Below are positions 3,635-58,074 of a stretch of 64,000 nt of DNA, piece by piece. The first letter of the stretch is position 1. The number at the start of each line of letters is the position of its first letter. The stretch is from the NCBI RefSeq assembly GCF_024502345.1, contig NZ_JALDNN010000001.1; one strand, given 5' to 3'. The translations under genes were made by a program, and so were the position numbers. The notes under the pieces were generated by a model. It saw nothing but the letters and a program-made list of their open reading frames with translations. It was not told where the DNA came from and ran no database searches. Origin of the DNA: Escherichia coli (GTDB lineage Bacteria; Pseudomonadota; Gammaproteobacteria; Enterobacterales; Enterobacteriaceae).

Positions 3635-5124
3635 AACGCCCCAATTTTCTGTTCATCATGACCGATACCCAGGCCACCAATATGGTCGGTTGCTATAGCG
3701 GTAAACCGCTGAATACGCAAAATATTGATAGTCTGGCGGCGGAAGGTATTCGCTTTAATTCCGCCTACACCTGTTCACCGGTTTGTACGCCTGCACGCGC
3801 CGGACTATTTACCGGTATCTACGCTAACCAGTCCGGCCCGTGGACCAACAACGTCGCGCCAGGCAAAAACATCTCCACTATGGGGCGCTACTTTAAGGAT
3901 GCCGGCTATCACACCTGTTACATCGGCAAATGGCATCTCGACGGTCATGACTATTTCGGCACTGGCGAGTGTCCGCCGGAGTGGGACGCTGATTACTGGT
4001 TCGATGGGGCGAACTACCTTAGCGAACTGACGGAAAAAGAGATCAGCCTGTGGCGCAATGGCCTAAACAGCGTTGAGGATTTACAGGCGAACCATATCGA
4101 CGGAACCTTCACCTGGGCGCACCGCATCAGCAATCGGGCGGTAGATTTTCTGCAACAGCCCGCGCGCGCCGAGGAACCCTTCCTGATGGTGGTTTCGTAT
4201 GATGAGCCGCATCACCCGTTCACCTGTCCGGTGGAGTATTTAGAGAAATACGCTGATTTTTACTACGAGCTGGGCGAGAAAGCACAGGATGACCTGGCTA
4301 ACAAACCGGAACATCACCGCTTATGGGCGCAGGCGATGCCATCGCCAGTCGGTGATGGCGGGCTTTATCACCATCCGCTCTATTTTGCCTGCAATGACTT
4401 TGTTGATGACCAAATCGGACGGGTCATCAATGCCTTAACGCCAGAGCAACGTGAAAATACGTGGGTTATTTATACATCCGATCACGGCGAAATGATGGGC
4501 GCACATAAGCTGATCAGTAAAGGAGCGGCGATGTATGACGACATCACCCGCATTCCGCTGATCATCCGTTCGCCGCAAGGGGAGCGGCGACAGGTCGATA
4601 CGCCAGTCAGTCATATCGATTTACTGCCGACAATGATGGCGCTGGCAGATATTGAAAAACCAGAGATTCTGCCGGGGGAAAATATCCTTGCCGTGAAAGA
4701 GCCACGCGGCGTGATGGTGGAATTTAACCGCTACGAGATTGAGCATGACAGCTTTGGCGGTTTTATTCCGGTGCGTTGCTGGGTGACGGATGACTTTAAA
4801 CTGGTACTCAACCTCTTCACCAGTGATGAACTTTACGATCGCCGTAATGACCCAAATGAAATGCATAACCTGATCGATGATATCCGTTTTGCAGACGTTC
4901 GCAGCAAAATGCATGACGCCTTATTGGATTACATGGACAAAATTCGCGATCCGTTCCGCAGTTACCAATGGAGTCTGCGTCCGTGGCGTAAAGATGCACG
5001 GCCGCGCTGGATGGGGGCGTTTCGTCCACGCCCACAAGATGGCTATTCGCCAGTGGTACGCGACTATGACACCGGCCTACCGACGCAAGGAGTGAAGGTG
5101 GAGGAGAAAAAACAGAAATTCTGA
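3631..5124 (+). CDS. yidJ: sulfatase (Cys-type, CTPAR active-site motif)
   Basis: The translation contains the sulfatase signature C-T-P-A-R-A-G-L-F-T-G and metal-binding DHG residues; 497 aa. Confidence 0.85.
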   Translation: MKRPNFLFIMTDTQATNMVGCYSGKPLNTQNIDSLAAEGIRFNSAYTCSPVCTPARAGLFTGIYANQSGPWTNNVAPGKNISTMGRYFKDAGYHTCYIGKWHLDGHDYFGTGECPPEWDADYWFDGANYLSELTEKEISLWRNGLNSVEDLQANHIDGTFTWAHRISNRAVDFLQQPARAEEPFLMVVSYDEPHHPFTCPVEYLEKYADFYYELGEKAQDDLANKPEHHRLWAQAMPSPVGDGGLYHHPLYFACNDFVDDQIGRVINALTPEQRENTWVIYTSDHGEMMGAHKLISKGAAMYDDITRIPLIIRSPQGERRQVDTPVSHIDLLPTMMALADIEKPEILPGENILAVKEPRGVMVEFNRYEIEHDSFGGFIPVRCWVTDDFKLVLNLFTSDELYDRRNDPNEMHNLIDDIRFADVRSKMHDALLDYMDKIRDPFRSYQWSLRPWRKDARPRWMGAFRPRPQDGYSPVVRDYDTGLPTQGVKVEEKKQKF

Positions 5125-24564: not shown

Positions 24565-25785
24565 TGTAGATTCAATCTGTCAATGCAACACCCCTTTCAA
24601 TTATCTCTTTCGGTGTTTTGAACTTCAGTGTCTTTCTCGGTCTGTTGTTTAGCTGAGCAGCAACCAGATCTAGTTCATGTTGAGTATATTGGGCAAGACA
24701 TGTCTTTTTAGGAAAGTACTGCCGAATTAGCCCATTTGTGTTCTCATTTGTTCCCCGCTGCCAAGGACTCTGAGGATCGCAGAAGTAAACTTTAACGCCG
24801 GTGCTGACAGTAAATTCTAGATGTCTGGCCAGTTCCATTCCTCTGTCCCATGTCAGTGATTTTCTGAGTTCTGACGGTAAACTCAGGAATTTGTCGGTAA
24901 GAGCCTGATTTACTGAGACAGAATCTTTGCCCCTGAGTCTAAGGATGATCGTATAACGTGATTTTCGGTCTACAAGTGTGGCTATATGAGAGTTTTTTGT
25001 ACCTGAGACTAAATCGCCCTCCCAATGCCCCAGAGAGCGTCTGTTATCGATATTTCGGGAACGTTCGTGAATTGGTGTTCCGTTCACTATGTTAATCGTA
25101 CCTCTTTCGCCTTTGCGGGTATGACGCCTGCCATGGCGAAGGCTATGCGACCGTCGCAGATGCTGTATATTCAGGTGGTGTAGCGCTTCACGGCTACGAA
25201 AGTACAGCGTTTTATAAATTGTCTCAGGTGATATTCGCAGCGTTTTTTGACGTGGTTTTGTTCGCCTTAACCATCCTGATATTTGCTCTGGAGACCATTT
25301 CATCTCCAGCTTTTCCAGAACAAGCTTTCGCAATGGTAAATTTTGATCCAGTAAGCACGGTTTTGGCCTTTTCGCCATTCTGTTGGCTCGGTTATTAGCA
25401 TCAACAGCTTTGTAATAGCGTCTGCCCCGATTACGCTGAACTTCACGTGAGATCGTCGAAGGACTGCGATTCAGCGCAGTAGCTATCGCACGAATGCTCA
25501 TTTTGGCTGACAAACCAGCTCGTATCTCCTCGCGCTCAGACAGTGTCAGGTGAGCTACAGCCCGCTTACGCTCATGGGGTTTTATGCCGCCAGTATCCCT
25601 TAACATAGTGAAGATCGTTCCGGGTTTTGAACCCAGGATATTCGCTATTTCACTGAAGCCTGTTCCGTTCTTCCATAGTTCAAAAACAGAGGCTTTTTCC
25701 TCTGCTGTAAATGTTCGTCTCATTCAAAAAACCTCCGCAACCCCATGTTTTCACATAACTGTTGCGTTGACCAATTGAATCTACA
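24565..25785 (-). mobile_element. IS30 (1221 bp, complete, with terminal inverted repeats)
   Basis: Ends TGTAGATTCAATCTGTCAATGCAAC (24565) and GCGTTGACCAATTGAATCTACA (25785); flanking GC dinucleotide on both sides. Confidence 0.9.
24572..25723 (-). CDS. insI: IS30 transposase
   Basis: 383-aa ORF; matches the IS30 transposase I remember, with an N-terminal HTH region and a C-terminal DDE domain. Confidence 0.9.
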   Translation of the reverse strand: MRRTFTAEEKASVFELWKNGTGFSEIANILGSKPGTIFTMLRDTGGIKPHERKRAVAHLTLSEREEIRAGLSAKMSIRAIATALNRSPSTISREVQRNRGRRYYKAVDANNRANRMAKRPKPCLLDQNLPLRKLVLEKLEMKWSPEQISGWLRRTKPRQKTLRISPETIYKTLYFRSREALHHLNIQHLRRSHSLRHGRRHTRKGERGTINIVNGTPIHERSRNIDNRRSLGHWEGDLVSGTKNSHIATLVDRKSRYTIILRLRGKDSVSVNQALTDKFLSLPSELRKSLTWDRGMELARHLEFTVSTGVKVYFCDPQSPWQRGTNENTNGLIRQYFPKKTCLAQYTQHELDLVAAQLNNRPRKTLKFKTPKEIIERGVALTD

Positions 25786-26875
25786 GCCGCGTATCTCGCT
25801 TTCTATGGATGGAGGGTAAAATTTCTACGGGTTGGGTAACGACAGGAATATTTCTTTGTATTGATGGCAAAAACAACCAGACTATCAGCCCGCAAACAAC
25901 AAATGCGATGGCAGCGGTGAGATACATCACTTTAAAACTAAATCCCATTGCCAGTTCATAAGCGAGCGGTGGCCCGATAACCCAGGCAAGCGAGATCTGA
26001 GCACGTAAAAATGTACTGAACATGACCGTCTCACGGCCTGTTCTATCGGCGTGTTCACGGGCGAGGGCGAACATTTGCGGGTTTGCGGTGGAAGCAAAAC
26101 TACTCAGAAGTACGCCCGTTGAGAGGAGAATGAAGTAGTTGCGATTCCACGCAAAAAGCGTGCAGGCCAGCACTCCAAATAAGCAACATAGCAGAATCAG
26201 TAATTTACGGTCGCCTTGTTTATCGGAGTGCCTTGCCAGAAATTGACTGACCAGAATTCCCATAATAGCGCTACCGGTGAAGAAAAAACCTACCATTATA
26301 GGACGGGCTTTCAGTTCATCTGCGAGGAATATACTTAGGGTAGGAGTCTGAAGAGCGCCCGCAATACCCGTCAGAAAGGCGACAAGTAAAAATGCCGCGG
26401 CAGTGAGATCAAGTATTTTTGATGGAGTGGTAGCCGTTTTTTGCATTCTTCTGAATCACCGGGCGAAAAAATATAACTGAGTTACAAATAAGTACCAGTC
26501 GAATGAGTATTGTATTAAGAATTTTTGAGTATCGCTGATACAACCAGAAAGCAATGCTAGCGCAATATTATAGGGCCAGCAATTGAGATTATTAGCAAAA
26601 GCATGTTAAGAATTAATTACCGAATTTATATATTAATTATAGTAAGGCAATGAGCTATTTTTGATAGTAAAAATAAAACAAGTTGATTTGATATATTAAA
26701 TGAACAAATTAATCTTGATGGCAGTCTGATTATTGGTGAAGTTTATAGTCAGTTTTTTTCGCCAGCGGTTAAAGAAATAGAATAATCGTATAAAAAAGGG
26801 TGTTCTGGGGCGAGTAAAACAACATCTTCACCTTAATGGCGATACAGTTGGCTGAGAGTCAGCAGGGGGGCAAAT

Positions 26876-27000
26876 CACCTGCAAATAAACACGGCGCATA
26901 CTGGCGTGAATATCGCGGATGCGTTCGAGGACAGAAGAACCGACAGGCGGATTCTTCAGCCGCTCATCGTCCATCACAAAACCTTAGACCAGGTATTCCT
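26876..27000 (-). pseudogene. degenerate internal fragment of a rhuM-family gene
   Basis: About 125 bp align to the intact rhuM-like gene at 27741-27890, with an internal deletion of ~25 bp and several substitutions; no intact ORF. Confidence 0.6.
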
Positions 27001-27067
27001 GAAGCCGATTGAATATTGAGCAGTAGAAAATATCTGGATTGACAGTATTACAAGGGGTTGGAGAACG

Positions 27068-27100
27068 TCAGGAGAGGCATTTTGGCGATCACAGGAGTCG
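27068..27100. repeat. degenerate direct repeat of the selC 3-prime end plus flank (candidate distal att site of the island)
   Basis: TCAGGAGAGGC....TGGCG----ATCACAGGAGTCG compared with TCAGGAGAGGCTAATTGGCGGAAGATCACAGGAGTCG at 35848-35884. Confidence 0.55.
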
Positions 27101-27214
27101 CATTCAGCGGCTTGATCTGTTGAATTTAGTGGTTTTTATCGTGTTGGATTTTTGTTGGTGCCCCCTATTATGCCCCCAAATGATTTTGCTTGTGGTGGTT
27201 ATAGGCATTCAGAG

Positions 27215-28252
27215 CTACTTTTTAGGCTCTGTTTTCCATTGTAGCAAACCGGCGATATCCTTCTCACCTTCGGCTTCTTTTAAGCGCCGTTGTTGTTCAG
27301 CAAACTGACCATACTCCGCCTGCGCTTTTTCATCGGCCATTTTCTTACTGATTTTACCTGCGCCTTGCAAAACCTCACGGTCGTTAAATTGCAGGAACTG
27401 ATCCAGCTTATCCTGCCAGTCGCGTAAAAAGACCTGCTGACGACGACGGGCCTGATCCTCGGCAAAATCCAGCCACATGTTAACTACGCGGTTAAGCTCG
27501 CTGACTTCATCCTGAGTGAGATAATTTTTTGCCACCGTCACGTCACCCTTACGCACCTCTTCACCTTTATAGCTGGTCAGCCCCATATGTGGCTGGCTGG
27601 CGTCAGCACGCAGATGAATGAGTTCAGCGGCGGTATGTCCGGTACAGGCAAAATGTAACTTGTTCTGGATGGTTTGAAAAAACTGCGTGGTTTCTTTCAG
27701 TGATGGTTGATAGTCGGCGGCTAACGCAAAGATCTCTCGCACCCGTAAATAAACCCGACGTTCGCTGGCGCGAATATCGCGGATACGCTCCAGCATCTCA
27801 TCGAAATAGTCGGGCACAGCCGATGAACCCACGGGCGGGTTCTTCAGCCGCTCATCGTCCATCACAAAACCTTTGATCAGGTATTCCTGGAGCGTCTGGG
27901 TTGCCCACTGGCGGAACTGCGTGCCGCGAGGGGAGCGAACGCGGTAGCCGACAGCAAGAATAACAGGCAGGCTGTAGTGAAGCCTGTTGCGGCTTACCTG
28001 ACGGCCACCTTCCTGTTGAACTTGTAAGTAAGACTTACAGGTTGCGTTTTGTTCAAGTTCGCCTTCTTCATAGATCGCTTTAATGTGCTGTGTAACTGCC
28101 TGGGGAGTGATCTGATAAAGGTTTGCGATGGTTGCCTGAGGGAGCCATAGTGTCTCTTGCTCAAAGCGGCATTCAACACGAACTTCACCGTCATCGCTGG
28201 CAAACATAACAAATTCGCCTGCCGGGGATTGGGTTAAGTATTTATCTGTCAT
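27215..28252 (-). CDS. rhuM: RhuM-family protein (virulence-associated, function unknown)
   Basis: 345 aa with the family signature LPVILAVGYRVRSPRGTQFRQWAT. Confidence 0.8.
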   Translation of the reverse strand: MTDKYLTQSPAGEFVMFASDDGEVRVECRFEQETLWLPQATIANLYQITPQAVTQHIKAIYEEGELEQNATCKSYLQVQQEGGRQVSRNRLHYSLPVILAVGYRVRSPRGTQFRQWATQTLQEYLIKGFVMDDERLKNPPVGSSAVPDYFDEMLERIRDIRASERRVYLRVREIFALAADYQPSLKETTQFFQTIQNKLHFACTGHTAAELIHLRADASQPHMGLTSYKGEEVRKGDVTVAKNYLTQDEVSELNRVVNMWLDFAEDQARRRQQVFLRDWQDKLDQFLQFNDREVLQGAGKISKKMADEKAQAEYGQFAEQQRRLKEAEGEKDIAGLLQWKTEPKK

Positions 28253-28339
28253 GCCGTCTCCGCTTATATCTGACTCGCAATGCTGTAATCCGCTTAGTAT
28301 GCCAGAAATTCTTGGTGAAGCTTATTACGCAGATAGCGT

Positions 28340-29284
28340 TTATTTTGCGGGCAGCGCTCCCGGATAATGCTTTGCCACAATGTCATTCATCTTCTCCACC
28401 AGGTCCAGACGCTTAAACGTGATATGCCCGTTGCCTTTCTGAAAGTAGCGAATGGTGAACATATCGTCTTTAAAGACCTGTTGATGCGGGTTATCGCGAA
28501 CAAAATTCATAAATCGGATAGAGACATCATGCCGGTTGTCAGGAATGGTTTTGCCATCCAGCAGGTAAAGCATCCGTTCCAGATCGGCGAGCTGATCGCG
28601 CCGCCAGCCCCAGTTCAGACTGAAGCCCCATCTGTCATGCTTCACCAGATTGTTGACGATAATCTTCTTACCGAAGTAACAGGGATTATTGGTTTTGTAG
28701 TCCCAGCTTAACCCTTTAAATACATTGATAATCCCACGTTCGAAAACATCCTGTTTATTGTGGTGGAGTTGTTCAAAGGTACTTAGGATGTTGGCTTCAC
28801 TGATGGCCGGAAGATCGCCCTCTTCGAGGTTTTTAGCCCACTGGCTGCGGGCTTCGGCATCCATCAAGGTCAACATCCCGGACTTCAGCATGAGATCGCG
28901 CCAGATACTGCGATCGATATTGCAGGTAATCACCGGCATCGCTTTATCGACTGGTTGCATCAGCCAGCAGTCAAAGGAATGGCCCTGTCGCATCGCCCAA
29001 TGCTCCGCCACATCACCACCGATGCTGGAGGTTAGCCGTGAGATATCATCAAGCTTATGGATCAGGATTTCTATCAGGCTCAGCGCAGCATCACGCCCTG
29101 TGACGATGCGTTCTATACTGGTTGAGCAAATTAGCTCATTATGATCGGTTAAAACTTCAGCTTCTGTTTGCATGATATTTTGTCCGTAAAAAGCAAACAC
29201 GCCCGCCGGGAGTGGCAGGCGCATTATGCAATGAGTAAATAAGGAAGACAGATCGGGAATGTAATTCGGGAAGGAGGCTCGCAA
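28340..29284 (-). CDS. hypothetical protein, possibly DUF4942-like as is commonly found downstream of CbtA-family toxins
   Basis: 314-aa ORF directly downstream of the cbtA-like gene; family assignment is from memory only. Confidence 0.4.
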   Translation of the reverse strand: MRASFPNYIPDLSSLFTHCIMRLPLPAGVFAFYGQNIMQTEAEVLTDHNELICSTSIERIVTGRDAALSLIEILIHKLDDISRLTSSIGGDVAEHWAMRQGHSFDCWLMQPVDKAMPVITCNIDRSIWRDLMLKSGMLTLMDAEARSQWAKNLEEGDLPAISEANILSTFEQLHHNKQDVFERGIINVFKGLSWDYKTNNPCYFGKKIIVNNLVKHDRWGFSLNWGWRRDQLADLERMLYLLDGKTIPDNRHDVSIRFMNFVRDNPHQQVFKDDMFTIRYFQKGNGHITFKRLDLVEKMNDIVAKHYPGALPAK

Positions 29285-29287
29285 GAT

Positions 29288-29620
29288 TCAGCGTGTCGAA
29301 AGATTATGGCCTTGTCGTAACAACCCCATTGCCTGTCGCGCCCGCAAAATGTCTACAGCCCGCAGATAAGGCGATTGTTCCTGCCAGCTAAATCCTTTGC
29401 GATCGATGCGAACGAGTTCGTATTTTTCCACCAGAAAGTTCACGGCATCGGCAAGAGTAACGCCTGCGTTGATATGTTCCTGAATGACTGTTTCATCGCA
29501 GAATGGCGTGTCACTCAGGGCCAGGCCATAGTGTTGTGCAAGTAGACGGGTCAGTAACATCTGCCAGACGGCCACAGGCGACGGGCATGGCTTCGCTATG
29601 TGTGCGTCCTCCTTTCGCAT
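29288..29620 (-). CDS. CbtA/YeeV-family type IV toxin homolog, with no cognate antitoxin gene upstream
   Basis: Translation [61 protein letters not shown] resembles CbtA ([31 protein letters not shown]); its 5-prime end overlaps the upstream gene. Confidence 0.65.
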
Positions 29621-30329
29621 TGCGCCCGTTCAGACCACCTTTAATCAGGTTCTCCTGAATGCGCTGATAGGTTGTCCAGAGGTCACCGGACTCATCCTGC
29701 CAGCGACGGGGAGCCAGTAGCTGAGATTCCGTCACCGGCTGATGCTCTTCGCCAAAACGATACGTCAGCGCAGCTTGCGCCAGCGCCGCCTGTGCTGGTG
29801 GAGGTAGCATGAGTGACTGCATGGCATCGCGCTTCTCTTCTACGCGGTCAAATATCCCCAGCACTTCGTAAGCCCCTTCAATGACCTTCTCTACTACGTT
29901 GCCTTTATGCGGGACACGCACCTCCCCGAACGACTCGCCGCAAATCAACCCATTTTGGCAAACAGATCTGAATAAACCCGGCAGCATTTGATATGAACTG
30001 GAGCCGTCATGGCTGTTAAGCAGGATTATTTCTGGCACTTGTTTGCCAGTAATCTGGCCTTCTCGGCGTAGGCGCAGCATGTGTTTGGTGTGCTCACGCT
30101 TGCTCTGGTCCCGCACTCGGGTCTGGCAGGCAAAGAACGGTTGAAAGCCTTCACGCTTCAGGTTATCGAGCAGAGTGATTGTCGGAATGTAGGTATAGCG
30201 GTCACTGCGGGATTCATGTTTGTCTTCGCTGAAGACGCTGGGCACATAGTGCGCCAGCTCCTCGCGGGTTAACGGGCGGTCACGGCGCACAAGATTGGTA
30301 GCACCAAAACGGCTGGCTAAACGGGTCAT
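29511..30329 (-). CDS. DUF932/YfjQ-like protein of CP4-type prophage remnants
   Basis: Starts MTRLASRFG..., as I recall for DUF932 proteins of CP4-57-like elements; its 3-prime end overlaps the cbtA-like ORF by 110 bp. Confidence 0.5.
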
Positions 30330-30399
30330 AGGCGACTCCTTTAAAAATGGGCATAAAAAAGCCACCCCGAAGGATGGCCTGGATTGAAAGGCTGGATTA

Positions 30400-30891
30400 T
30401 TAAGGTGAAACAGAAGGGTGTATCTGCGATGCAGTCTTTTCTGAATCTGGTATCGGCAATGCAGATAGTTCGGCAGGACTAAGCTTTCCTGCGCGGTAAA
30501 GTTGCAGTTTCACCAGAATCGGCGCTTTTTGCGACTGAAGGTAACTCAGGCACCATTCCCGCTTCAGGACTATCCTGACCGGGGCAGGCAAAAGCTCATA
30601 TGCTTTGCTAAAAACGACTTCAACAAAAGCATCATCACTCAGTTTATCCTCGGCAATATTCAACAGACCATTGATGACAATATTTTCCAGTAACAGCCTG
30701 TATTTGTCAGAACCCGTTACCGAAGCTTTAACCGTGTTTTCCGGTAAGTGTTCAGAAGATGTGTCATGATTTTCTGTGTGTGCTTTTCTGCGTGAGAAAT
30801 TCAGCTTTTCTGTAAGGCTACGAAATTTTCCTGTGCTATTTTCAGACATCGTAATTTTATCCTGTGGCCTCCGCGTCTTGCCATCAGGCAA
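30400..30891 (-). CDS. hypothetical protein
   Basis: 163-aa ORF just upstream of and co-oriented with the DUF932 gene; no recognisable motif. Confidence 0.4.
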   Translation of the reverse strand: MPDGKTRRPQDKITMSENSTGKFRSLTEKLNFSRRKAHTENHDTSSEHLPENTVKASVTGSDKYRLLLENIVINGLLNIAEDKLSDDAFVEVVFSKAYELLPAPVRIVLKREWCLSYLQSQKAPILVKLQLYRAGKLSPAELSALPIPDSEKTASQIHPSVSP

Positions 30892-31736
30892 GTACGGCGA
30901 GTTTTTTTATCGCTTTAATCAGGCTAAAGGTGGTCAAACCTGCACCTAGAGCCCTGACCGTGACCGAATGGCTTCGCATCAACGTAACCCCCATTACGCA
31001 CAGGACAAGTTGCCACGTACAATCAGGCCATGGGGGGTCATTACCCGGCATGTCCGTAACCACTTCGCTTTGACTATGCACGGAAAACACCTCTACTTGT
31101 AGCCATTAGGGAGCCACTGGCCCTGTTTGCGAATATCAGTAATAATGCCCCCCTCTTTGACCGAAATGGTACGCCAGCTTGGTTCTTTGCTGGATGCATT
31201 CCCATAGGTATACCCGACAGTCATTGTCAGGTTTTCGCCTGAAGTTGTGGTGAGATCAGCCTCATACTTAGCTTCGGTATTTTGTTTGCGAATAAAACGC
31301 ACGGTGTTGATTGCAGAACAGCGAATACTGCTTTTCGCATATTCAAAGGAATTGTTAGCCATTTGGCATCCGTCGTTTTTAATTTCATCCGTCAGGTTTG
31401 CAGAAACATTAAAGTTCTTAGGTACAGGGGCAAATTTAGCCATGTCGTTTCGCATAGTCGGTGGATCTGTCTGAAGCACAAGATAAACAGGACAATCTGA
31501 TTTGCCTACTTCACACGCTTTTGCCACGTAATCACGTACTGGCCATCCAGCATTACCGAAATATTCCGCACCACTTTCATCTTTGCATTGTGACCAGGTA
31601 GCTTTTTTCCCCATCATAATGCCGTCTACCAGCACACAGGTGACGGCTTTTACAGGCTCACCATCCCACCGGACTGCATCAAAGGGCTGAATGCCTGTAT
31701 GGTTCACGTCAAGCGTGTAGGCCTGTGGATTCCTAG

Positions 31737-32932
<1,196 letters not shown>

Positions 32933-33038
32933 CTAATCAGATAGAACAGTCCCGGATAATATTCGGGACTCATACACTGACATACTGAGTTCTGAATTTA
33001 GTAGCAAGATTACTTATGATTATTTAAGGATAGTAACC

Positions 33039-34004
33039 ATGCCTTTAGATTTAAGTAACACCTTAGTTATTGGCATCAGCGCAACCGCGCTTTTCGACAT
33101 GAGTGAATCCGATCGCATGTTTCGCGAAACCTATGCGACCGATCCTGATAGCGCCATTGAAAAGTATCGCGCCTACATGCTGGAGCACGAAAACCAGCCT
33201 TTACAACCAGGAACAGGCTATCCCTTGGTCAAAGCGCTTTTGGGACTCAACCAGCACCGTCAACCCGATGATAAATCACCGCTGGTTGAAGTTGTCGTGA
33301 TGTCGCGTAACAGCCCTGATACCGGTATCCGTGTCCTAAATACCATTCGCCATGACAAACTCGATATTACACGTTCAGCCTTTACCGCAGGTGAAACTGT
33401 TGCCGATTACTTAGATGCTTTTGATGTGGATCTGTTTTTAACGACCAACGTTGAAGATGCGCAAAAGGTGATTGATTCCCGGTTCTGCGCCGCAGCAATC
33501 CTGAAAGATCCGCCTTCTGACGCATCTGATATCCCCGAAGGGCAAGTGCGCATTGCTTTTGACGGTGATGCAGTGCTTTTCTCTGATGAAAGTGAGTTAG
33601 TTTATAAAACTCAAGGGATGGCCGCTTTTCACGCCCAGGAGGATGCGCAGCAAGATATCCCGATGGCTGAGGGACCTTATGCCACTTTGCTAAAAAAAAT
33701 AGCCAAGCTTCAGGAGCGATTGCCAACACGAGTCGAGTATTCTCCCGTCCGTATTGCGCTGGTGACAGCCCGAAATAGCCCTTCGGAAATGCGCGTCATT
33801 AAAACGCTGAGAAGCTGGGGGGTATATGTCGATGAAGCTTTTTTTCTTGGCGGTGTAGAGAAAACAAAAGTTCTGAAGGCGTTTAAACCGCACATTTTCT
33901 TCGACGACCAGGATGTGCATTTGGTTGCTGCCGCAAAGGTTGTTCCTTCCGGTAAAGTACCTTATGCCAGTAATTCAGAGCTTTTTGAAAACGTAGCATC
34001 ATGA
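33039..34004 (+). CDS. HAD-superfamily phosphatase resembling the bacterial 5-prime-nucleotidase family; cytoplasmic
   Basis: HAD motifs in the C-terminal half (IAFDGDAVLF, LVTARN, FFDDQDVH); no signal peptide; N-terminal ~170 aa is a separate domain. Confidence 0.6.
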   Translation: MPLDLSNTLVIGISATALFDMSESDRMFRETYATDPDSAIEKYRAYMLEHENQPLQPGTGYPLVKALLGLNQHRQPDDKSPLVEVVVMSRNSPDTGIRVLNTIRHDKLDITRSAFTAGETVADYLDAFDVDLFLTTNVEDAQKVIDSRFCAAAILKDPPSDASDIPEGQVRIAFDGDAVLFSDESELVYKTQGMAAFHAQEDAQQDIPMAEGPYATLLKKIAKLQERLPTRVEYSPVRIALVTARNSPSEMRVIKTLRSWGVYVDEAFFLGGVEKTKVLKAFKPHIFFDDQDVHLVAAAKVVPSGKVPYASNSELFENVAS

Positions 34005-34052
34005 AACTTTAAACAAATAGCCATCTTTACATCTAGATGGCTATTTGTTAAT

Positions 34053-35267
34053 TTATGCCGTCTTCCTAAATGCACCCTCTACCACACCCCCGCCTTTCCC
34101 CAGCTCACCAATGTAATCCGCATACCACTGCATCATTTGCCTACGCCCATCAAGATACTGCGCATGGTTATACGTGCCGCGAATCGCATTCTTATCGACA
34201 TGGGCAAGCTGCGTTTCAATCCACGCTGAGTTAAAGCCCTGCTCGTGCAGAATGGTACTCATCGTGTGGCGGAAACCATGTCCCGTCAGCCTGCCTTTAT
34301 ACCCTAATAACTCAATGACCTGATTGATGCTTTCCTTGCTGATCGGCTTGCGAGGATCATTCCTGCCGATAAAGACCAGCGCGTGATGTTTTGATATCGG
34401 CTCAAGTTGCTTGAACAGCGCAATAACCTGTTCTGAGAGCGGCACAATATGGGGCCGTTTCATCTTCATCACTTCTGCCGGGATCTCCCATAGTTTTGTC
34501 TCAAAATCGATATCCTCCCAGCGTGCGAAACGTAGTTCTTGCGTGCGTACACCGGTTAACATAATGATCTGAGTGGCGGTCTTCGTGATAACACTGCCGG
34601 TATAACCCGCCAGATCATTGAGAAAGTGAGGTAGTTCATTGGCAGTAAGGAAAGGAAAATGTACCTTTTTTGGCGTAGCTAAGGCGCTGGCAAGATCGGG
34701 GGCGGGGTTGTAATTCGCTCTGCCGGTAATAATTGCAAAACGGAATACTTCCCCGCAGCGCTGGCGAACTTTACGCATTTTCTCCAGCGCTCCGCGTTTC
34801 TCCATCTTACGTAGCGCTTCCAGTAGTTCCATTGGCTTAATATCAGCAATAGGGCGCTTACCGATGTAGGGGAAGATGTCCTTCTCAAAGGTGTCGATGA
34901 TTTCATCGCGGTAGCGCAATGACCAGCGATCGGCTTTAGTCTGATGCCACTCGCGAGCCACGGCTTCAAACGTGTTCTCTGCATTCAGTTTCTGCGCAAG
35001 TTTCTCGGATTTTTTAGTTTCTCCGGGGTCGCCACCTGCCGCCAGAATCTTCTTCGCCGCATCACGTTTTTCACGGGCGTCTGCCAGAGAAACATCGGGG
35101 TAGACGCCAAAAGCGAGACGCTTCTCTTTACCTGCAACGCGATATTTCATGCGCCAGTAGCGTGAGCCATTGGTTGCTACTTCAACGTACAACCCTCCTG
35201 CATCACCTAAGCGATACGTCTTTTCTCTGGGTTTTAACGCACGCACTTTTGCATCAGTTAATGGCAT
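34053..35267 (-). CDS. P4/CP4-57-type tyrosine integrase
   Basis: 404 aa with an N-terminal arm-binding region (YRLGDAGGLYVEV..YWRMKYR) and catalytic R..HGFRHT..Y residues. Confidence 0.9.
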   Translation of the reverse strand: MPLTDAKVRALKPREKTYRLGDAGGLYVEVATNGSRYWRMKYRVAGKEKRLAFGVYPDVSLADAREKRDAAKKILAAGGDPGETKKSEKLAQKLNAENTFEAVAREWHQTKADRWSLRYRDEIIDTFEKDIFPYIGKRPIADIKPMELLEALRKMEKRGALEKMRKVRQRCGEVFRFAIITGRANYNPAPDLASALATPKKVHFPFLTANELPHFLNDLAGYTGSVITKTATQIIMLTGVRTQELRFARWEDIDFETKLWEIPAEVMKMKRPHIVPLSEQVIALFKQLEPISKHHALVFIGRNDPRKPISKESINQVIELLGYKGRLTGHGFRHTMSTILHEQGFNSAWIETQLAHVDKNAIRGTYNHAQYLDGRRQMMQWYADYIGELGKGGGVVEGAFRKTA

Positions 35268-35706
35268 CGTTGTTTCCTCCTGAAAGCAAGAATGCTTTGA
35301 CAGCCTGGGTTTGTTCGGGTGTCAGGGATAGGGTTTGTTTGGTTGTTTTGATGGTTAAGCCGTAATGCTCTGAGAGGGAAAGTTGAAAGGATTGTTTGGC
35401 CCGTTCCTGGCGACGTTGCTCTCTTTCGTGAGCCTTATCGATTGCAGGATCGTAGCCCTCTTTGATTTTTACTCTGGCTTTATCCCTTAGCACAATGGCT
35501 TCTTTAATCGTGACGTCCGGCCATGCTCCAAATGTGAGGCTTTTCTCCTTCCCCTCTATCCGGTACTTCATCCGCCAGCACTTTGACCCCGTTGGATTCA
35601 CCAACAAAAAGAGCCCTCTGCCGATAGAAAATTTGTAAGGTTTACTACGGGCATCAAGTGACTTTATTATTTGATTATTAATGATTTTTTGTTCTTTTGG
35701 TGGCAT
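35254..35706 (-). pseudogene. N-terminal remnant of a second P4-type integrase
   Basis: Residues ~20-95 are homologous to the N-terminus of the adjacent intact integrase (CWRMKYRIEGKEKSLTFGAWPDV); it then runs out of homology and ends 14 bp inside the next gene. Confidence 0.7.
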
Positions 35707-35862
35707 GTCATTTTACCTCCAATGGTTGGTATGCCCAATTGTGCCCCCAAAGGCGTATTGATACCAGTAGACTCCGGTTGACCTCAGAATACAAGGAAGG
35801 CTTGATATATAAGGGATGAGAAGAGATTTTGTTGACGTCAGAAGAGTTCAGGAGAGGCTAAT

Positions 35863-35957
35863 TGGCGGAAGATCACAGGAGTCGAACCTGCCCGGGACCG
35901 CTGGCGGCCCCAACTGGATTTGAAGTCCAGCCGCCTCACCGGAGACGACGATCTTCC
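35863..35957 (-). tRNA. selC: tRNA-Sec (selenocysteine, 95 nt including CCA)
   Basis: The reverse complement reads GGAAGATCGTCGTCTCCGGTGAGGCGGCTGGACTTCAAATCCAGTTGGGGCCGCCAGCGGTCCCGGGCAGGTTCGACTCCTGTGATCTTCCGCCA. Confidence 0.97.
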
Positions 35958-44721: not shown

Positions 44722-45588
44722 ATGAAAAAGCGTCGGAAGGAACCGGAAACGCTACGTGAACACTGTCGCCACATTTTTGGTGATGAGCCGCCAGTGCTCT
44801 GTGTATGGGAAACGGAATTTGATTACGCAGATGCCGAACTCAAGGCGCTGGCGGCTAAAGAGTGGCAGCAGATCAGCGAATGGGATTTGAGTGCTTACTA
44901 TGTACTCAATCTCGTTTATAACGAACCGATGCAAATAGAGTTGTTTCGCTATCTGTTTCCGCTCTGCCTGGCGCAATGGCATGAAACCGTTTTAGCTGGC
45001 GGTTATGGTGATCACTTCGAAGAATCCTTAATGAAGGCATTGCGTCGGCCCTATCTCTGGCAGGAGATGATGAATGCTTCCCAACGCCAGCAGGTACGGC
45101 AATTTTTACTGGACACCGCGTTGCAGCGTATGGATAACGAGCGTGGTTTCAATAACGTTCTTTGCTGGCTGGCGGTGTTCAATACTCTGGGTGGGGCCGC
45201 GCCGTTAATTCGTTCTCTCTGGTCGCGCTGGTGGGCGCTGGATACGCCGGGAAAAGCGGTGTGTGCTATTCAGTATGCCGCGCATCTAATTTATCCCATA
45301 GAAGCCAATCCGTTATGGTCGCAAGAATGGATAGGCTGGGGGCATCCATTAGGCCATAAAGATGGCTGGTCCTCTGATAATCGCGCTTTTCTTCGCCAAA
45401 TGTTAACACCTGAAATGATTGTGGCTGGCGTACAGGCAGCGGCTGAAATTCTGCGTGGTGAACCGGAAGGCGCAATGGCGGCGCGAATTGCACAGGATGC
45501 GTATGAGGCAATGGATATCCTCACTATCCAGATTGAAGATTTACTGCGTGACTTGTCTCGTGATGAGTCTGGTCATGCGTTGGAGTAA
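44722..45588 (+). CDS. hypothetical Trp-rich protein (288 aa) wedged between gltS and recG
   Basis: ATG lies 3 bp after the gltS stop; the 3-prime end overlaps the convergent recG stop by 16 bp; no recognised motif. Confidence 0.5.
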   Translation: MKKRRKEPETLREHCRHIFGDEPPVLCVWETEFDYADAELKALAAKEWQQISEWDLSAYYVLNLVYNEPMQIELFRYLFPLCLAQWHETVLAGGYGDHFEESLMKALRRPYLWQEMMNASQRQQVRQFLLDTALQRMDNERGFNNVLCWLAVFNTLGGAAPLIRSLWSRWWALDTPGKAVCAIQYAAHLIYPIEANPLWSQEWIGWGHPLGHKDGWSSDNRAFLRQMLTPEMIVAGVQAAAEILRGEPEGAMAARIAQDAYEAMDILTIQIEDLLRDLSRDESGHALE

Positions 45589-51601: not shown

Positions 51602-53989
<2,388 letters not shown>

Positions 53990-54280
53990 GGTTCTCTCCC
54001 TAAAAATCTGTCTGGCAGGGTAGCGATTTGTGCGCATTGTCACGATTGAGATTTTTTAAGGTGAGGGGGAATTGATAACTTGTAGTTATGTGAAATCGCT
54101 ATTTTCTGTAGCGGAGATGCATTCTTCTGACTTCTTGTCTGAGAAAATGCATAAGAAAAAATAGGTTAAAACTGAGGGGTGGAAAAGAAAGGTGCAATGT
54201 TTAGCTATTGTATTCACCGCACCTGGACTTTGGCTTACGCATCGGGTGTCTCAATCAACAAAAAGAGTTTTTAGTTTCTG

Positions 54281-54592
54281 CTATTTTTTCTCTGTAATTT
54301 TTACACTGTTTTCCAACTGCTTAATGCTGACCTGCGGGGTCGGCAACTCCTCAGGCATGGTTCCGCCAAGTTCCTGAATGGTTTGCCTCACCTTGCGACC
54401 TACGTCAAAGTGTGTGGTGTTAGCTTGCTGTTTTGAATTCACGCCATCCCGCTTAAGTTTTTCTTCTGTTTGGGTAGCTACTTTGAACCGGATAACCTCG
54501 AATGGGTGACTGGTGAGATTGGTGCGCCGCCGTTCGATGTGTCGGGTGTGGCCTACCTGCTTCATGGCATGGTGTCGTTCGATAAGCGCCAC
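54281..54592 (-). CDS. small ORF of uncertain reality; its C-terminal ~60 codons look protein-like and may be the remnant of the gene displaced by the islet
   Basis: GTG-initiated 103-aa ORF with a charged C-terminus (TQTEEKLKRDGV...GGTMPEELPTPQVSIKQLE); its 5-prime half overlaps a plus-strand ORF. Confidence 0.3.
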   Translation of the reverse strand: MALIERHHAMKQVGHTRHIERRRTNLTSHPFEVIRFKVATQTEEKLKRDGVNSKQQANTTHFDVGRKVRQTIQELGGTMPEELPTPQVSIKQLENSVKITEKK

Positions 54593-54858
54593 CAGATCGA
54601 ATCAACCCGGCGCACACTGGAAAGCATGGTTGCTGGTGGACTGCTTGAGCGGGTGACAGTGTATGAATCGCGCCAGATACGGCGCGGCGGTGAGACTAAC
54701 GCAACGGTCGTGCGCTACGGTTTACCCGGTCAGTGCGCTGTTATGCGCGATACTGGCGGCGCTGATAGCCTGGCTGATTCCGGTAATACTGCGGAGTTAG
54801 GTCTACCGGCATAGCTTACCCGTGGAGAAATGAATCATCGAATGAGTTTGGTCGGGAG

Positions 54859-55539
54859 TTATTCCACCAGCAAAAATGGCGTTGCCCGGTCTATGACGTT
54901 GATGCCAATTAACGAGCTAACATTTCGACCATTCACAATGCTATCCCGTTCAAGCAAATGCGCTATTTTTTCTACTTCATACCAGTATTGAGCCATGAGG
55001 GCTTTGGTCTTTTCAACGAGTTTAGAAAGCATTAACTCCCTGTTAATTTGCTTATTTGTAGCGCAGATTAAATCGAGCATGTCATTTACGTTAGCCATGT
55101 CATAGCGATGAGGTAGCGAATACTTTTTGTTGAAAATATCGTTGTTTTCGTAAAGGGCTTCGCTTACTGGTCCGGCGAGGGATACAAAAGCGGCCTTTTT
55201 TGCATCGCGCTTTATACCATCCGCATAGTAACGTATGAAAGGGATAACTTTACCATTCTGCCCAACTACACCAGATTTACTATCCCGCAAACGCCCGAGA
55301 TCGTGGCTGTGAATTATGCTGTGTTTAACAACGCCCAAACACTTGGCCTCATGTACATGTTCGCCAGCAACGTAACCGTATTCATCCATAACGGCGATAA
55401 CAATATTGGTTTCACGCCCACCGATATGACCAGGAATAACCGGGACAATTGTGGCAAATTCATTACCGTTAATTGTGCCCTGATAGGCGTTCAGATGAGG
55501 GGCGGCCTCAGAAATTAATCTGCTTTTTTCGATGTTCAT
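54859..55539 (-). CDS. hypothetical protein (226 aa, His-rich central segment), cargo of the integrase islet
   Basis: Clean ORF with a TAA stop; contains HVHEAKC and HSIIHSHD segments; no family recognised. Confidence 0.5.
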   Translation of the reverse strand: MNIEKSRLISEAAPHLNAYQGTINGNEFATIVPVIPGHIGGRETNIVIAVMDEYGYVAGEHVHEAKCLGVVKHSIIHSHDLGRLRDSKSGVVGQNGKVIPFIRYYADGIKRDAKKAAFVSLAGPVSEALYENNDIFNKKYSLPHRYDMANVNDMLDLICATNKQINRELMLSKLVEKTKALMAQYWYEVEKIAHLLERDSIVNGRNVSSLIGINVIDRATPFLLVE

Positions 55540-55761
55540 TTTCAGTCTCCGTTAGGCGGCGGTGAGATTGTCCGGGTACCACATGGTTGACACTTAGATC
55601 CAACACGTAGTCGTACCTATCCAGTGAAAACCATTCCATCACATCGCCGTATTTAGCCCGTTTCATAACGCCACCTTTTACGCTGCGCCTTATTTTGTGA
55701 TTGAGCCAGGCGGTAAGGCTTCCCGCTTTTCGCCCCGTCGGGCTAGACTCAATCTATTCAG

Positions 55762-57021
55762 TTAGTTCGCCCTTCTGAGAGGCGTCACGTTGTAATCTTC
55801 GCCCTTCTCCAGAGCCACCAGCAAGCCCGCCCACTGTGTTAACGCAGCCCGTCGCTCGTCAAAGTATTGGTGACGGTTATAAATCCCCTCTACGCCCTTA
55901 ATGCGATGATTGAGGCATCGTTCCGCCACTACCGGATCAACGCCCAGCGCTGCTAAATGGGTGCGGGCCGTGCGTCGGAAGTCGTGAATCGTGAAATTAG
56001 GCACATCCGGCATTTCGGCGCGAACCTTAGCCAGTGCTACGGGCAGGGTGCTTTCCTGAATATGGGGGATCATGCGGTTTTGCATCTTTCTGGCTGGCAG
56101 TACCCATGCGCTGTTGCATGAGAACGTTTTAAGCTCTCTCAGCCATTCGACGGCTGGCGGTGCTAATGGGATGTCTATAGCGTCGCCGTTTTTGCTGCGT
56201 TCCTCTGGCAAGCGCCATACGGCTTTATCAAAATCGAACTCCTCCCAGCGGGCGGCGCATAACTCCATTTTGCGGACGCATAACGCTAACAGTAATTTGA
56301 ACGTGATTTCGTTCTGGCGACTGAATCCCTTAGCCGTGCGCATGGCTTTGAATAGCTGGATTAACTCATCGCGGGTTAACCAGCGGTCACGGGCAACTTC
56401 TTTCCCTCCGGCGTCTGCCACCTCAAAGGCTGAACAGGGGTTAATCTCCAGCGCGTGCCGTTTGATTCCGTAGTCGAATATGCGGCGCGTCCATCTCAGC
56501 ACGTCCGTTGCTATGGTCGGCGCTCCACGGTCAACAATACTTTTCAGCATGTCGTCGATATGGCGCGGCTTCACGTCCTCTACCTTCATGCTGCCAATGC
56601 AGGGGTTTATATCTTTGTCGATACGGCGGCGGAGTATATCTGGGTGCTTCCAGCGCGGCAGGATCTGACGCTCAAAGTATTCAGCGGCAAGCTCTGAAAC
56701 GCGCATGGCATTCTTCTCTGCTTCGATCTTCGCCAGTGCTTCGGCTTTCCGTTCCTGCTTCTCTCCTGCAACGTCATAGCCCAACGCAACGCGAGCCGAT
56801 AGCTCTTTGGCTGTCTCTCTGGCCTTTGATAGTGATAGCTCGGCATATGAGCCGATAACCATTGCTCGCTGCTTACCTGCGAATTTATAGCGAAAGCGCC
56901 AGAAAGGGACTGTGTAGTTTTTGGGGTAGCAAATATAAAGGCCGTTGCCATCGGCCCTTCCTTCAAATCTATCTCCGGCCTTTATCCATGCGCGGATCTG
57001 CATGTCTGTAATCTTTGGCAT
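55762..57021 (-). CDS. P4-type tyrosine integrase
   Basis: N-terminus MPKITDMQIRAWIK..GLYICYP is typical of the arm-binding domain; C-terminal catalytic HDFRRT..Y residues; start trimmed from 57057. Confidence 0.85.
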   Translation of the reverse strand: MPKITDMQIRAWIKAGDRFEGRADGNGLYICYPKNYTVPFWRFRYKFAGKQRAMVIGSYAELSLSKARETAKELSARVALGYDVAGEKQERKAEALAKIEAEKNAMRVSELAAEYFERQILPRWKHPDILRRRIDKDINPCIGSMKVEDVKPRHIDDMLKSIVDRGAPTIATDVLRWTRRIFDYGIKRHALEINPCSAFEVADAGGKEVARDRWLTRDELIQLFKAMRTAKGFSRQNEITFKLLLALCVRKMELCAARWEEFDFDKAVWRLPEERSKNGDAIDIPLAPPAVEWLRELKTFSCNSAWVLPARKMQNRMIPHIQESTLPVALAKVRAEMPDVPNFTIHDFRRTARTHLAALGVDPVVAERCLNHRIKGVEGIYNRHQYFDERRAALTQWAGLLVALEKGEDYNVTPLRRAN

Positions 57022-57048
57022 TGCGAATACCTGAACATTGAATGGGGG

Positions 57049-57102
57049 TGTGTACATAAACCGATGTACATAAAACCCATTATGTACACCACTATGTACA
57101 CG
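57049..57102. repeat. four TGTACA palindromic iterons upstream of the islet integrase
   Basis: TGTACATAAA, TGTACATAAA, TGTACACC and TGTACACG spaced 12-17 bp apart. Confidence 0.6.
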
Positions 57103-57210
57103 GCAATCGTGCGCTTTGTTGCTTCCTCATGATAGCCCATGATAACAAAAAAGCCCGACAAAATGCGGGCTTTGCTGGTTTTGTGTATCTTTGTGATAGC
57201 TCTTAAATAT

Positions 57211-58074
57211 TTACTCGATATTCTGAATCTGCTCGCGCATCTGCTCAATCAACACTTTCAGCTCAATCGCGGAGTTTGTCACTTCGGCATTGATAGACTT
57301 CGACGCAAGAGTGTTCGACTCGCGGTTGAACTCCTGCATCATAAAGTCCAGACGACGACCAACGGCTTCTTTTTTCTTCAGAATGTTGTAGGTCTCTTTG
57401 ACATGCGCTTCGAGGCGGTCCAGCTCTTCGGCAACGTCAATTCGTTGTGCCAGCAGAACCAACTCCTGCTCCAGACGGTTGTTTTCCAACTGCACCTGAG
57501 CATCTTCCAGCTTCGCGACCAAGCGTTCACGCTGCCATTGCAGGATTTCCGGCATATGGGAGCGGACTTTGACCACTTCGGCGGTGACGCCTTCCAGACG
57601 CTGCTCGATCAATGCTTTCAGTGCCTGACCTTCGGTTTCGCGCGCGACAATAAAGTCGTCCAGGGTGCCATCCAACGCCGCGAGAATTTCAGCGGCAATG
57701 GCGTCAAGATCCTGCTCCTGGGCTGCCATCACGCCCGGCCAGCGCAGAATATCAACCGGGTTGATTTCCCCTTCGTCACTCTGCATTTTTACCCAGTTCG
57801 CGGCAGTTACCAGCTGTTTAGCCAGTTTTTCGTTGAGGATCAGCTCACCTTGCGCGCTAACATCTGGCTCATAGCGCAGGGTACATTCCACTTTACCGCG
57901 CGTCAGGCGAGAACGAATACGCTCACGAACGACAGGTTCAAGGCTACGGAACTGCTCCGGCAGACGAAAGTAAGTTTCCAGATAACGCTGGTTTACCGAG
58001 CGCATTTCCCAGGTTGCGCTCCCCCATTCACCCTTGATTTCACGCCGGGCGTAGGCGGTCATACTGCGGATCAT
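57211..58074 (-). CDS. yicC: YicC-family stress-induced protein
   Basis: 287 aa, MIRSMTAYARREIKGEWGSATWEMRSVNQRYLE. Confidence 0.95.
   Translation of the reverse strand: MIRSMTAYARREIKGEWGSATWEMRSVNQRYLETYFRLPEQFRSLEPVVRERIRSRLTRGKVECTLRYEPDVSAQGELILNEKLAKQLVTAANWVKMQSDEGEINPVDILRWPGVMAAQEQDLDAIAAEILAALDGTLDDFIVARETEGQALKALIEQRLEGVTAEVVKVRSHMPEILQWQRERLVAKLEDAQVQLENNRLEQELVLLAQRIDVAEELDRLEAHVKETYNILKKKEAVGRRLDFMMQEFNRESNTLASKSINAEVTNSAIELKVLIEQMREQIQNIE

Follow-up and report, generated by a model that had tools for sequence, protein, structure and literature searches.

The question raised by this locus is which, if either, of two overlapping open reading frames (ORFs) on opposite strands is a gene, and how the pair came to lie at the yicG-side junction of a small genomic islet. 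The window, by which we mean the whole stretch of 64,000 nucleotides that was analysed, is of an E. coli-type chromosome and here runs in the order ligB, yicG (53372-54043, minus strand), the two-ORF locus, an integrase gene, yicC (57211-58074, minus strand), rph and pyrE. The K-12 chromosome has dinD between yicG and yicC, with an intergenic region of 220 bp separating dinD from yicC. The ORF listing of the window reproduced the coordinates and the overlap that had been described in an earlier note on this DNA: the minus-strand ORF (54281..54592) has 103 aa and a GTG start, the plus-strand ORF (54470..54814) has 114 aa and a TTG start, and they share 123 bp (54470-54592). The peptide TVYESRQIRRGGETNATVVRYGLPG, which was quoted in the same note, was found within the plus-strand ORF. 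The G+C content is 0.583 at 54480-54767, 0.462 in the dinD tail that is described below and 0.514 in the whole window. A scan of 54040-55000 found no sigma-70-like promoter or terminator-like site, and no Shine-Dalgarno-like sequence lies ahead of either the GTG of the minus-strand ORF or the TTG of the plus-strand ORF. We infer that neither ORF is expressed, while read-through transcription from the minus-strand genes of the island, or from beyond 54040-55000, is conceivable; yicG and all of the neighbouring island genes lie on the same strand as the minus-strand ORF. The earlier reading that at most one of the two is real was right about the overlap but too generous in its conclusion, as both are most likely pseudogene fragments and neither is a working gene.

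The C-terminal part of the minus-strand ORF is the end of DinD. Residues 39-103 are identical to residues 210-274 of the K-12 protein at 65 of 65 positions, and the underlying DNA (54281..54479, minus strand), which holds the last 65 codons and the stop codon, matches K-12 dinD at 194 of 199 nucleotides. The 3' end of dinD had been suspected in the last 60 or so codons of this ORF, with a comparison to DinD proposed as the check, and the C-terminal fragment did match DinD; the NCBIfam equivalog model for the family, NF008573, detected the ORF with E=6e-27 over profile positions 215-279 of 288, although the 94.7 bits obtained fall below the curated cut-off of 242 bits, which is a whole-protein score. 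The position agrees as well: K-12 dinD (b3645; DNA damage-inducible protein D, Bro-N family, SOS regulon) has the same place and orientation by yicG, and the DNA of the window is collinear with K-12 from ligB through yicG to 54479, where the blastn match to both K-12 and the relative QDFD216 stops. This is the first of four junctions, J1 (54475..54479), which was located from the blastn ends and a three-way alignment and has a 5-bp microhomology, TAGCT, that is present in both parents. Compared with K-12 dinD, the remnant lacks 209 of the 274 codons, the start codon, the promoter with its LexA box and the Bro-N domain (PF02498; residues 10-105 in K-12 DinD), for which a Pfam scan of the minus-strand ORF gave no match, the corresponding DNA having been deleted. 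The box CTGTATTTATATACAG, which on the strength of the CTG-N10-CAG consensus we regard as the LexA box of dinD, is present in the dinD-yicC intergenic region of K-12 and QDFD216, and a pattern search that allowed up to two mismatches did not find it in the window. The dinD of this window is a pseudogene remnant and not a dinD gene. The remaining part of the ORF (54480..54592, minus strand) is a spurious 5' extension: the first 38 codons of the ORF read antisense frame 1 of an island gene, which by chance has stayed open, and the ORF crosses the junction only because this frame is free of stop codons over these 38 codons, up to the in-frame stop at 54602.

The plus-strand ORF had been thought a possible truncated element gene, which was borne out. 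Its residues 3-100 correspond, with 96-98% identity, to residues 12-109 of an island protein of 119 aa, and the fragment concerned (54480..54767, plus strand; codons 12-109 of 119) shares 98-99.7% nucleotide identity with positions 2210-2502 of the QDFD216 locus (L003) and 4527-4819 of locus L002. Related E. coli have this gene at the left end of an island of about 12.8 kb, whereas in the window it is an internal fragment that was cut at both ends, by J1 and by the second junction, J2. The parent is annotated in RefSeq as a hypothetical protein (WP_151166585.1 in QDFD216, WP_001350215.1 in E2863; WP_001405000.1 is another member of the family). The window ORF lacks the native start codon, the upstream region and parent residues 1-11, which include the family-invariant M1, R2, K7, K8 and L11; at the other end, the native C-terminal 10 residues are gone and the last 14 residues of the ORF are unrelated sequence beyond J2. 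Its TTG start sits in antisense dinD and is merely the first permissible start after an in-frame stop at 54434. The overlap of the two ORFs is therefore explained without overlapping genes, because each frame crosses J1 into the antisense of the other remnant and continues until a chance stop.

Searches with the 119-aa parent returned 542 homologues at E<=1e-3, mostly of 119-124 aa, all unnamed and all from Enterobacterales, including Escherichia, Klebsiella, Citrobacter, Salmonella, Yersinia, Pectobacterium and other genera. A profile search of 1.84 billion representative proteins yielded only 90 clusters, many of which were fragments. Neither the plus-strand ORF nor the full-length parent matched any Pfam, PHROG or NCBIfam family, and profile searches with the parent found no match among PDB sequences. 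A shallow alignment gave a first AF2 model that was too poor to use (pLDDT 50), and a second was made from the deeper, diversified alignment that the 1.84-billion-protein search provided; this model had a pLDDT of 74 and a pTM of 0.65, with helices at residues 5-12, 16-26, 33-41 and 49-64 followed by a hairpin at 69-78/84-93. The best Foldseek match to the PDB had E=0.02, with none at E<=0.001, and several of the top matches, namely TFIIE, the replication terminator protein RTP, ORC and plant O-methyltransferase N-terminal domains, contain winged-helix domains. A winged-helix-like fold of the parent is thus tentatively suggested by the model. The whole confidently modelled core (residues 16-93) is contained in the fragment of the window, and the truncated copy sheds no light on the role of this winged-helix-like family. 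Members of the family are found in enterobacterial islands with a convergent gene of the pRiA4b ORF-3 family, whereas the partner gene of the window copy has been deleted. The 3' ends of the two genes overlap by 8 bp (L003 2178-3072; L006 8969-9863; L004 1-846), and the module that they form with a gene for a 61-aa hypothetical protein and, usually, a PerC-family gene recurs in different islands, among them one near ykgL in strain E2863.

The complete form of the element was found in QDFD216 (NZ_CP053211.1, about 64.5-77.3 kb) and ET979 (NZ_CP100876.1), in which about 12.8 kb lies between dinD and yicC. Its annotated genes code for a tyrosine integrase, a DUF6387 protein, an AlpA-family or HTH regulator, an AntA/AntB antirepressor, an Icd-like protein, a P4-family primase, SSB, a protein annotated as 'peptidase M41 family', a PerC-family regulator, the pRiA4b ORF-3 protein and the 119-aa protein. 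Several genomes carry the complete island beside an intact dinD (825 bp). When set against the empty K-12 site, the island proved to be bounded by a direct repeat that overlaps the stop codon of yicC, and the integration target is therefore the 3' end of yicC; attL of the full-length island reads TTACTCATTGAATCTG. We classify the full-length element as a PICI/P4-type phage satellite in the yicC 3' end. The RefSeq annotation of the full-length relatives lists the P4-family primase and the Icd-like protein but not Psu, Sid or Delta, and hypothetical proteins are present there. Elements at this site have been described before: yicC-integrated PICIs have been cited as reference elements, and a drift of the attB position among them was reported (bioRxiv 10.1101/2022.07.18.500453). 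Mobilizable genomic islands (MGIs) of Vibrio also target the 3' end of yicC by means of a tyrosine recombinase (PMC5704250). The target gene, the gene end and the use of a tyrosine recombinase are shared with the islet of the window, whereas the MGIs, compared here by their published description, are elements of another type and from another genus that are mobilised by conjugation via SXT/R391 ICEs.

A blastn comparison of window 53368-57405 with the full-length islands of QDFD216 and ET979 and with the empty K-12 site split this region into five collinear blocks, which are separated by four junctions; the islet segments are 98-99.5% identical to the QDFD216 and ET979 elements and have kept their order and orientation. 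The first block (53368-54479) holds yicG and the dinD 3' end, and the second (54475-54767) is the interior of the 119-aa gene. Between them, at J1, 1098 bp are missing relative to QDFD216 (L003 1112-2209). The lost DNA comprises 626 bp from the 5' part of dinD, all of the dinD-yicC intergenic region of K-12 type, attL and roughly 250 bp from the island, of which 32 bp belong to the 119-aa gene. The other junctions were located by blastn and three-way alignment in the same manner. At J2 (54762..54767; TA, about 2 bp of microhomology) approximately 1.26 kb was lost, with the 3' end of the 119-aa gene, the pRiA4b-ORF3 family gene, the 61-aa hypothetical gene and the PerC-family gene. There follows a block (54762-55401) with the M41-like gene without its first 32 codons, which is bounded by J3 (55394..55401), where the microhomology is the 4-bp TAAC (7 of 8 bases of GCGNTAAC) and where around 7 kb was lost, including SSB, the P4-family primase, the Icd-like gene and others. 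The fourth block (55394-55578) has the first 48 or so codons of antA and the last 9 codons of the upstream neighbour of antA. J4 (55577..55578; TA, 2 bp) removed about 1.5 kb with a hypothetical gene, the AlpA-family regulator gene and most of the DUF6387 gene, and the last block (55577 onward) holds the first 30 codons of DUF6387, the integrase and attR.

About 2.7 kb of the island of about 12.8 kb is left, and consists of the gene fragment, a chimeric ORF, the DUF6387 stub, the intact integrase and attR. The chimeric ORF (54859..55539, minus strand) was made in frame by J3, which joined AntA/AntB residues 1 to about 47 to M41-like residues 33-212; it keeps the antA start codon, with upstream sequence only as far as J4 (55577), and has lost the HEAGH motif of the M41-like parent. 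To judge from this structure, it might still be expressed. The tyrosine integrase (55762..57021, minus strand; 419 aa) is intact, with 419 of 419 residues identical to the integrase of ET979 and an NCBIfam integrase domain match; the mechanically called ORF runs on to 57057. Upstream of it, at 57049-57105, there are (A/G)TGTACA repeats that resemble arm-type binding sites. The attR core TTACTCGATATTCTGAATCTG (57211..57231), identified by comparison with the empty K-12 site, overlaps the 3' end of yicC and was the only copy of the att core that a pattern search found in the window. Therefore attL has been deleted, and in consequence the remnant can no longer excise. Of the PICI features that were looked for, an integrase beside an att site is present (55762-57021; 57211-57231), whereas the flanking pair of attL and attR is broken, with attL inside the J1 deletion, and AlpA and the primase/replication module fell within the J3 and J4 deletions. 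Set against the QDFD216 and ET979 satellites, the window has in common with them the integrase and the att core at the yicC 3' end but lacks AlpA, the P4-family primase, SSB, the Icd-like gene, PerC, pRiA4b-ORF3 and attL, and two of its remaining ORFs are chimeras or fragments. The genes that helper-phage induction and packaging would require are absent from the islet, which is the remnant of a PICI-type element.

We consider it highly probable that the locus is a deletion scar and that dinD was truncated by a secondary deletion across attL rather than by the insertion of the island. A PICI/P4-type satellite of about 12.8 kb would have integrated by means of its own tyrosine integrase into the yicC 3' end, between dinD and yicC. 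A later deletion of 1098 bp, with TAGCT at both ends, would then have extended from inside dinD to 32 bp into the first gene of the island, so that J1 would join the dinD 3' tail on the minus strand to the interior of the 119-aa gene on the plus strand, each remnant facing the missing half of the other. Three further short-microhomology deletions would have shrunk the island to 2.7 kb. That the state of the window was derived by deletion follows from the occurrence of intact dinD together with the complete island and, in K-12, without the island. What was observed directly is what the two fragments are, where the breakpoints lie and that the start codons, the promoter and attL are gone; the order of events may be the one given here. 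The mechanism of the deletions was presumably RecA-independent illegitimate recombination, through either replication slippage or microhomology-mediated end joining, because all four junctions have 2-5 bp of microhomology and are free of IS and att sequence. Aberrant excision mediated by the integrase was rejected as the cause of J1, as neither breakpoint resembles or sits at the att core, and so was IS-mediated deletion, as no IS sequence was found at any of the four junctions. The earlier suggestion that the islet replaced the 5' part of dinD holds insofar as this is the junction at which that part was lost, but it was the later 1098-bp deletion, and not the insertion, that removed it.

Other explanations were weighed against this one. 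That the plus-strand ORF is a functional, N-terminally shortened 119-aa protein, initiated from the TTG or from an internal start, is very unlikely. Codons 12-109 are preserved at 96-98% identity without an internal stop, the modelled core of residues 16-93 is intact, and translation from the TTG or an internal ATG could in principle give a truncated protein; however, such high identity is what a recent deletion would leave and is not a sign of selection. The native ATG, the promoter region and the invariant M1, R2, K7, K8 and L11 have been deleted, the native C-terminus was exchanged for 14 unrelated residues after J2, and there is neither a promoter-like site in 54040-55000 nor a Shine-Dalgarno-like sequence before the TTG. 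Fainter still is the chance that the 103-aa ORF on the minus strand is a real chimeric gene in which the C-terminal 65 residues of DinD follow a new leader of 38 residues. Its frame is open across the junction from a GTG start, and read-through transcription is conceivable with yicG and the other neighbours on the same strand, but the leader is no more than a coding sequence read in antisense, neither a Shine-Dalgarno-like nor a promoter-like site was found, and with Bro-N and 209 of 274 residues missing the ORF scores 94.7 bits against a cut-off of 242.

The two other alternatives concern the junction itself. Direct integration of the island into dinD, or its arrival in an already truncated form, would make the junction an integration end, as the literal wording of the earlier note has it, and the attB drift that was reported among yicC-integrating PICIs (bioRxiv 10.1101/2022.07.18.500453) would lend this some plausibility. 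We nevertheless regard it as most improbable: on the island side the break falls 32 bp into a gene, some 250 bp from the end of the island and away from the att core, and TAGCT at J1 is unlike the att core TTACTCGAT..TGAATCTG. A pattern search also found no att-like direct repeat of 57211-57231 at 54470-54490, several genomes have the island with attL and an intact dinD, and the K-12 dinD-yicC intergenic region, which is outside attL, is gone as well. An assembly or sequencing artefact would be in keeping with an arrangement that occurs in none of 5,426 complete E. coli genomes and with a homopolymer-length frameshift of the sequencing-error type in nearby ligB. Against it, there are four independent junctions, each with a short, clean microhomology and flanked on either side by sequence of about 98-99% identity, which real deletions explain better than mis-joins do, and the shared repeats are much too short to confuse an assembler, which leaves an artefact with hardly any probability. 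The deletion scar is thus the reading that we retain.

Among these 5,426 complete genomes, megablast of 54044-55761 and of 54380-54580 found no record that crossed J1, and none covered at least 80% of 54044-55761. The exact 31-mer at J1, TTCTTCTGTTTGGGTAGCTACTTTGAACCGG, was likewise absent from the GTDB species-representative genomes. The arrangement appears to be specific to a strain or lineage, or else the source genome lies outside the collections searched. Occupancy of the yicC site varies among E. coli. Strains FDAARGOS_943 and FDAARGOS_944 are identical to the window over the gltS-recG region; FDAARGOS_943, the one of the two strains that was examined at the yicC locus, was rejected as a close relative there since it carries a different satellite. 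In this strain (NZ_CP065615.1 3789500-3812000), the satellite at the yicC site has a DUF927/toprim replication module, dinD is frameshifted, and a reverse transcriptase family gene lies between pyrE and slmA. It may be that dinD has been lost repeatedly beside the yicC hotspot.

Several other features of the window were observed. The gltS-recG gap is filled by an ORF of 288 aa (44722-45588, plus strand) without a Pfam family, which is annotated as 'hypothetical protein' in other strains; the insert is variable, because of the 5,426 complete E. coli genomes only some 1,910 have the region at a coverage of 80% or more. An island at 24572-35957 follows tRNA-SeC (35863-35957, minus strand) and codes for a tyrosine integrase (34053-35267), a 5'-nucleotidase (33039-34004), an IS5-type transposase (31805-32785) and an IS30-type transposase (24572-25723), the last of which adjoins a truncated-looking MFS gene (25781-26446), as well as for DUF932, DUF4942 and RhuM proteins. 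A deletion of 1 bp in an A-run at about 52713, where the A6 of K-12 has become A5, divides the ligB gene (51688-53375) into two ORFs, one of 347 aa and one of 215 aa; this is either a genuine pseudogene or a homopolymer sequencing error.

Every component of the locus, namely dinD, the satellite of the yicC site and its genes, is already known and annotated elsewhere, and what is seen here is ordinary genome decay; it is common for the deletions that erode integrated elements to reach into the genes beside them. A far more speculative reading, to which we give very little credence, is that the decay was selected and not neutral: J1 would have inactivated dinD and blocked excision, the remaining integrase and attR would act in trans on incoming satellites that target yicC or would occupy their landing site, and the winged-helix-like fragment would serve as a dominant-negative regulator. 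For annotation, neither ORF should be called, and the locus should be described as a dinD pseudogene (3' fragment) beside a degraded, immobilised yicC-site satellite. DinD is an inhibitor of RecA filaments, and the source strain is without functional DinD. The locus offers a small but clear example of how a satellite decays by serial short-microhomology deletions that spill over into the adjacent core genes.
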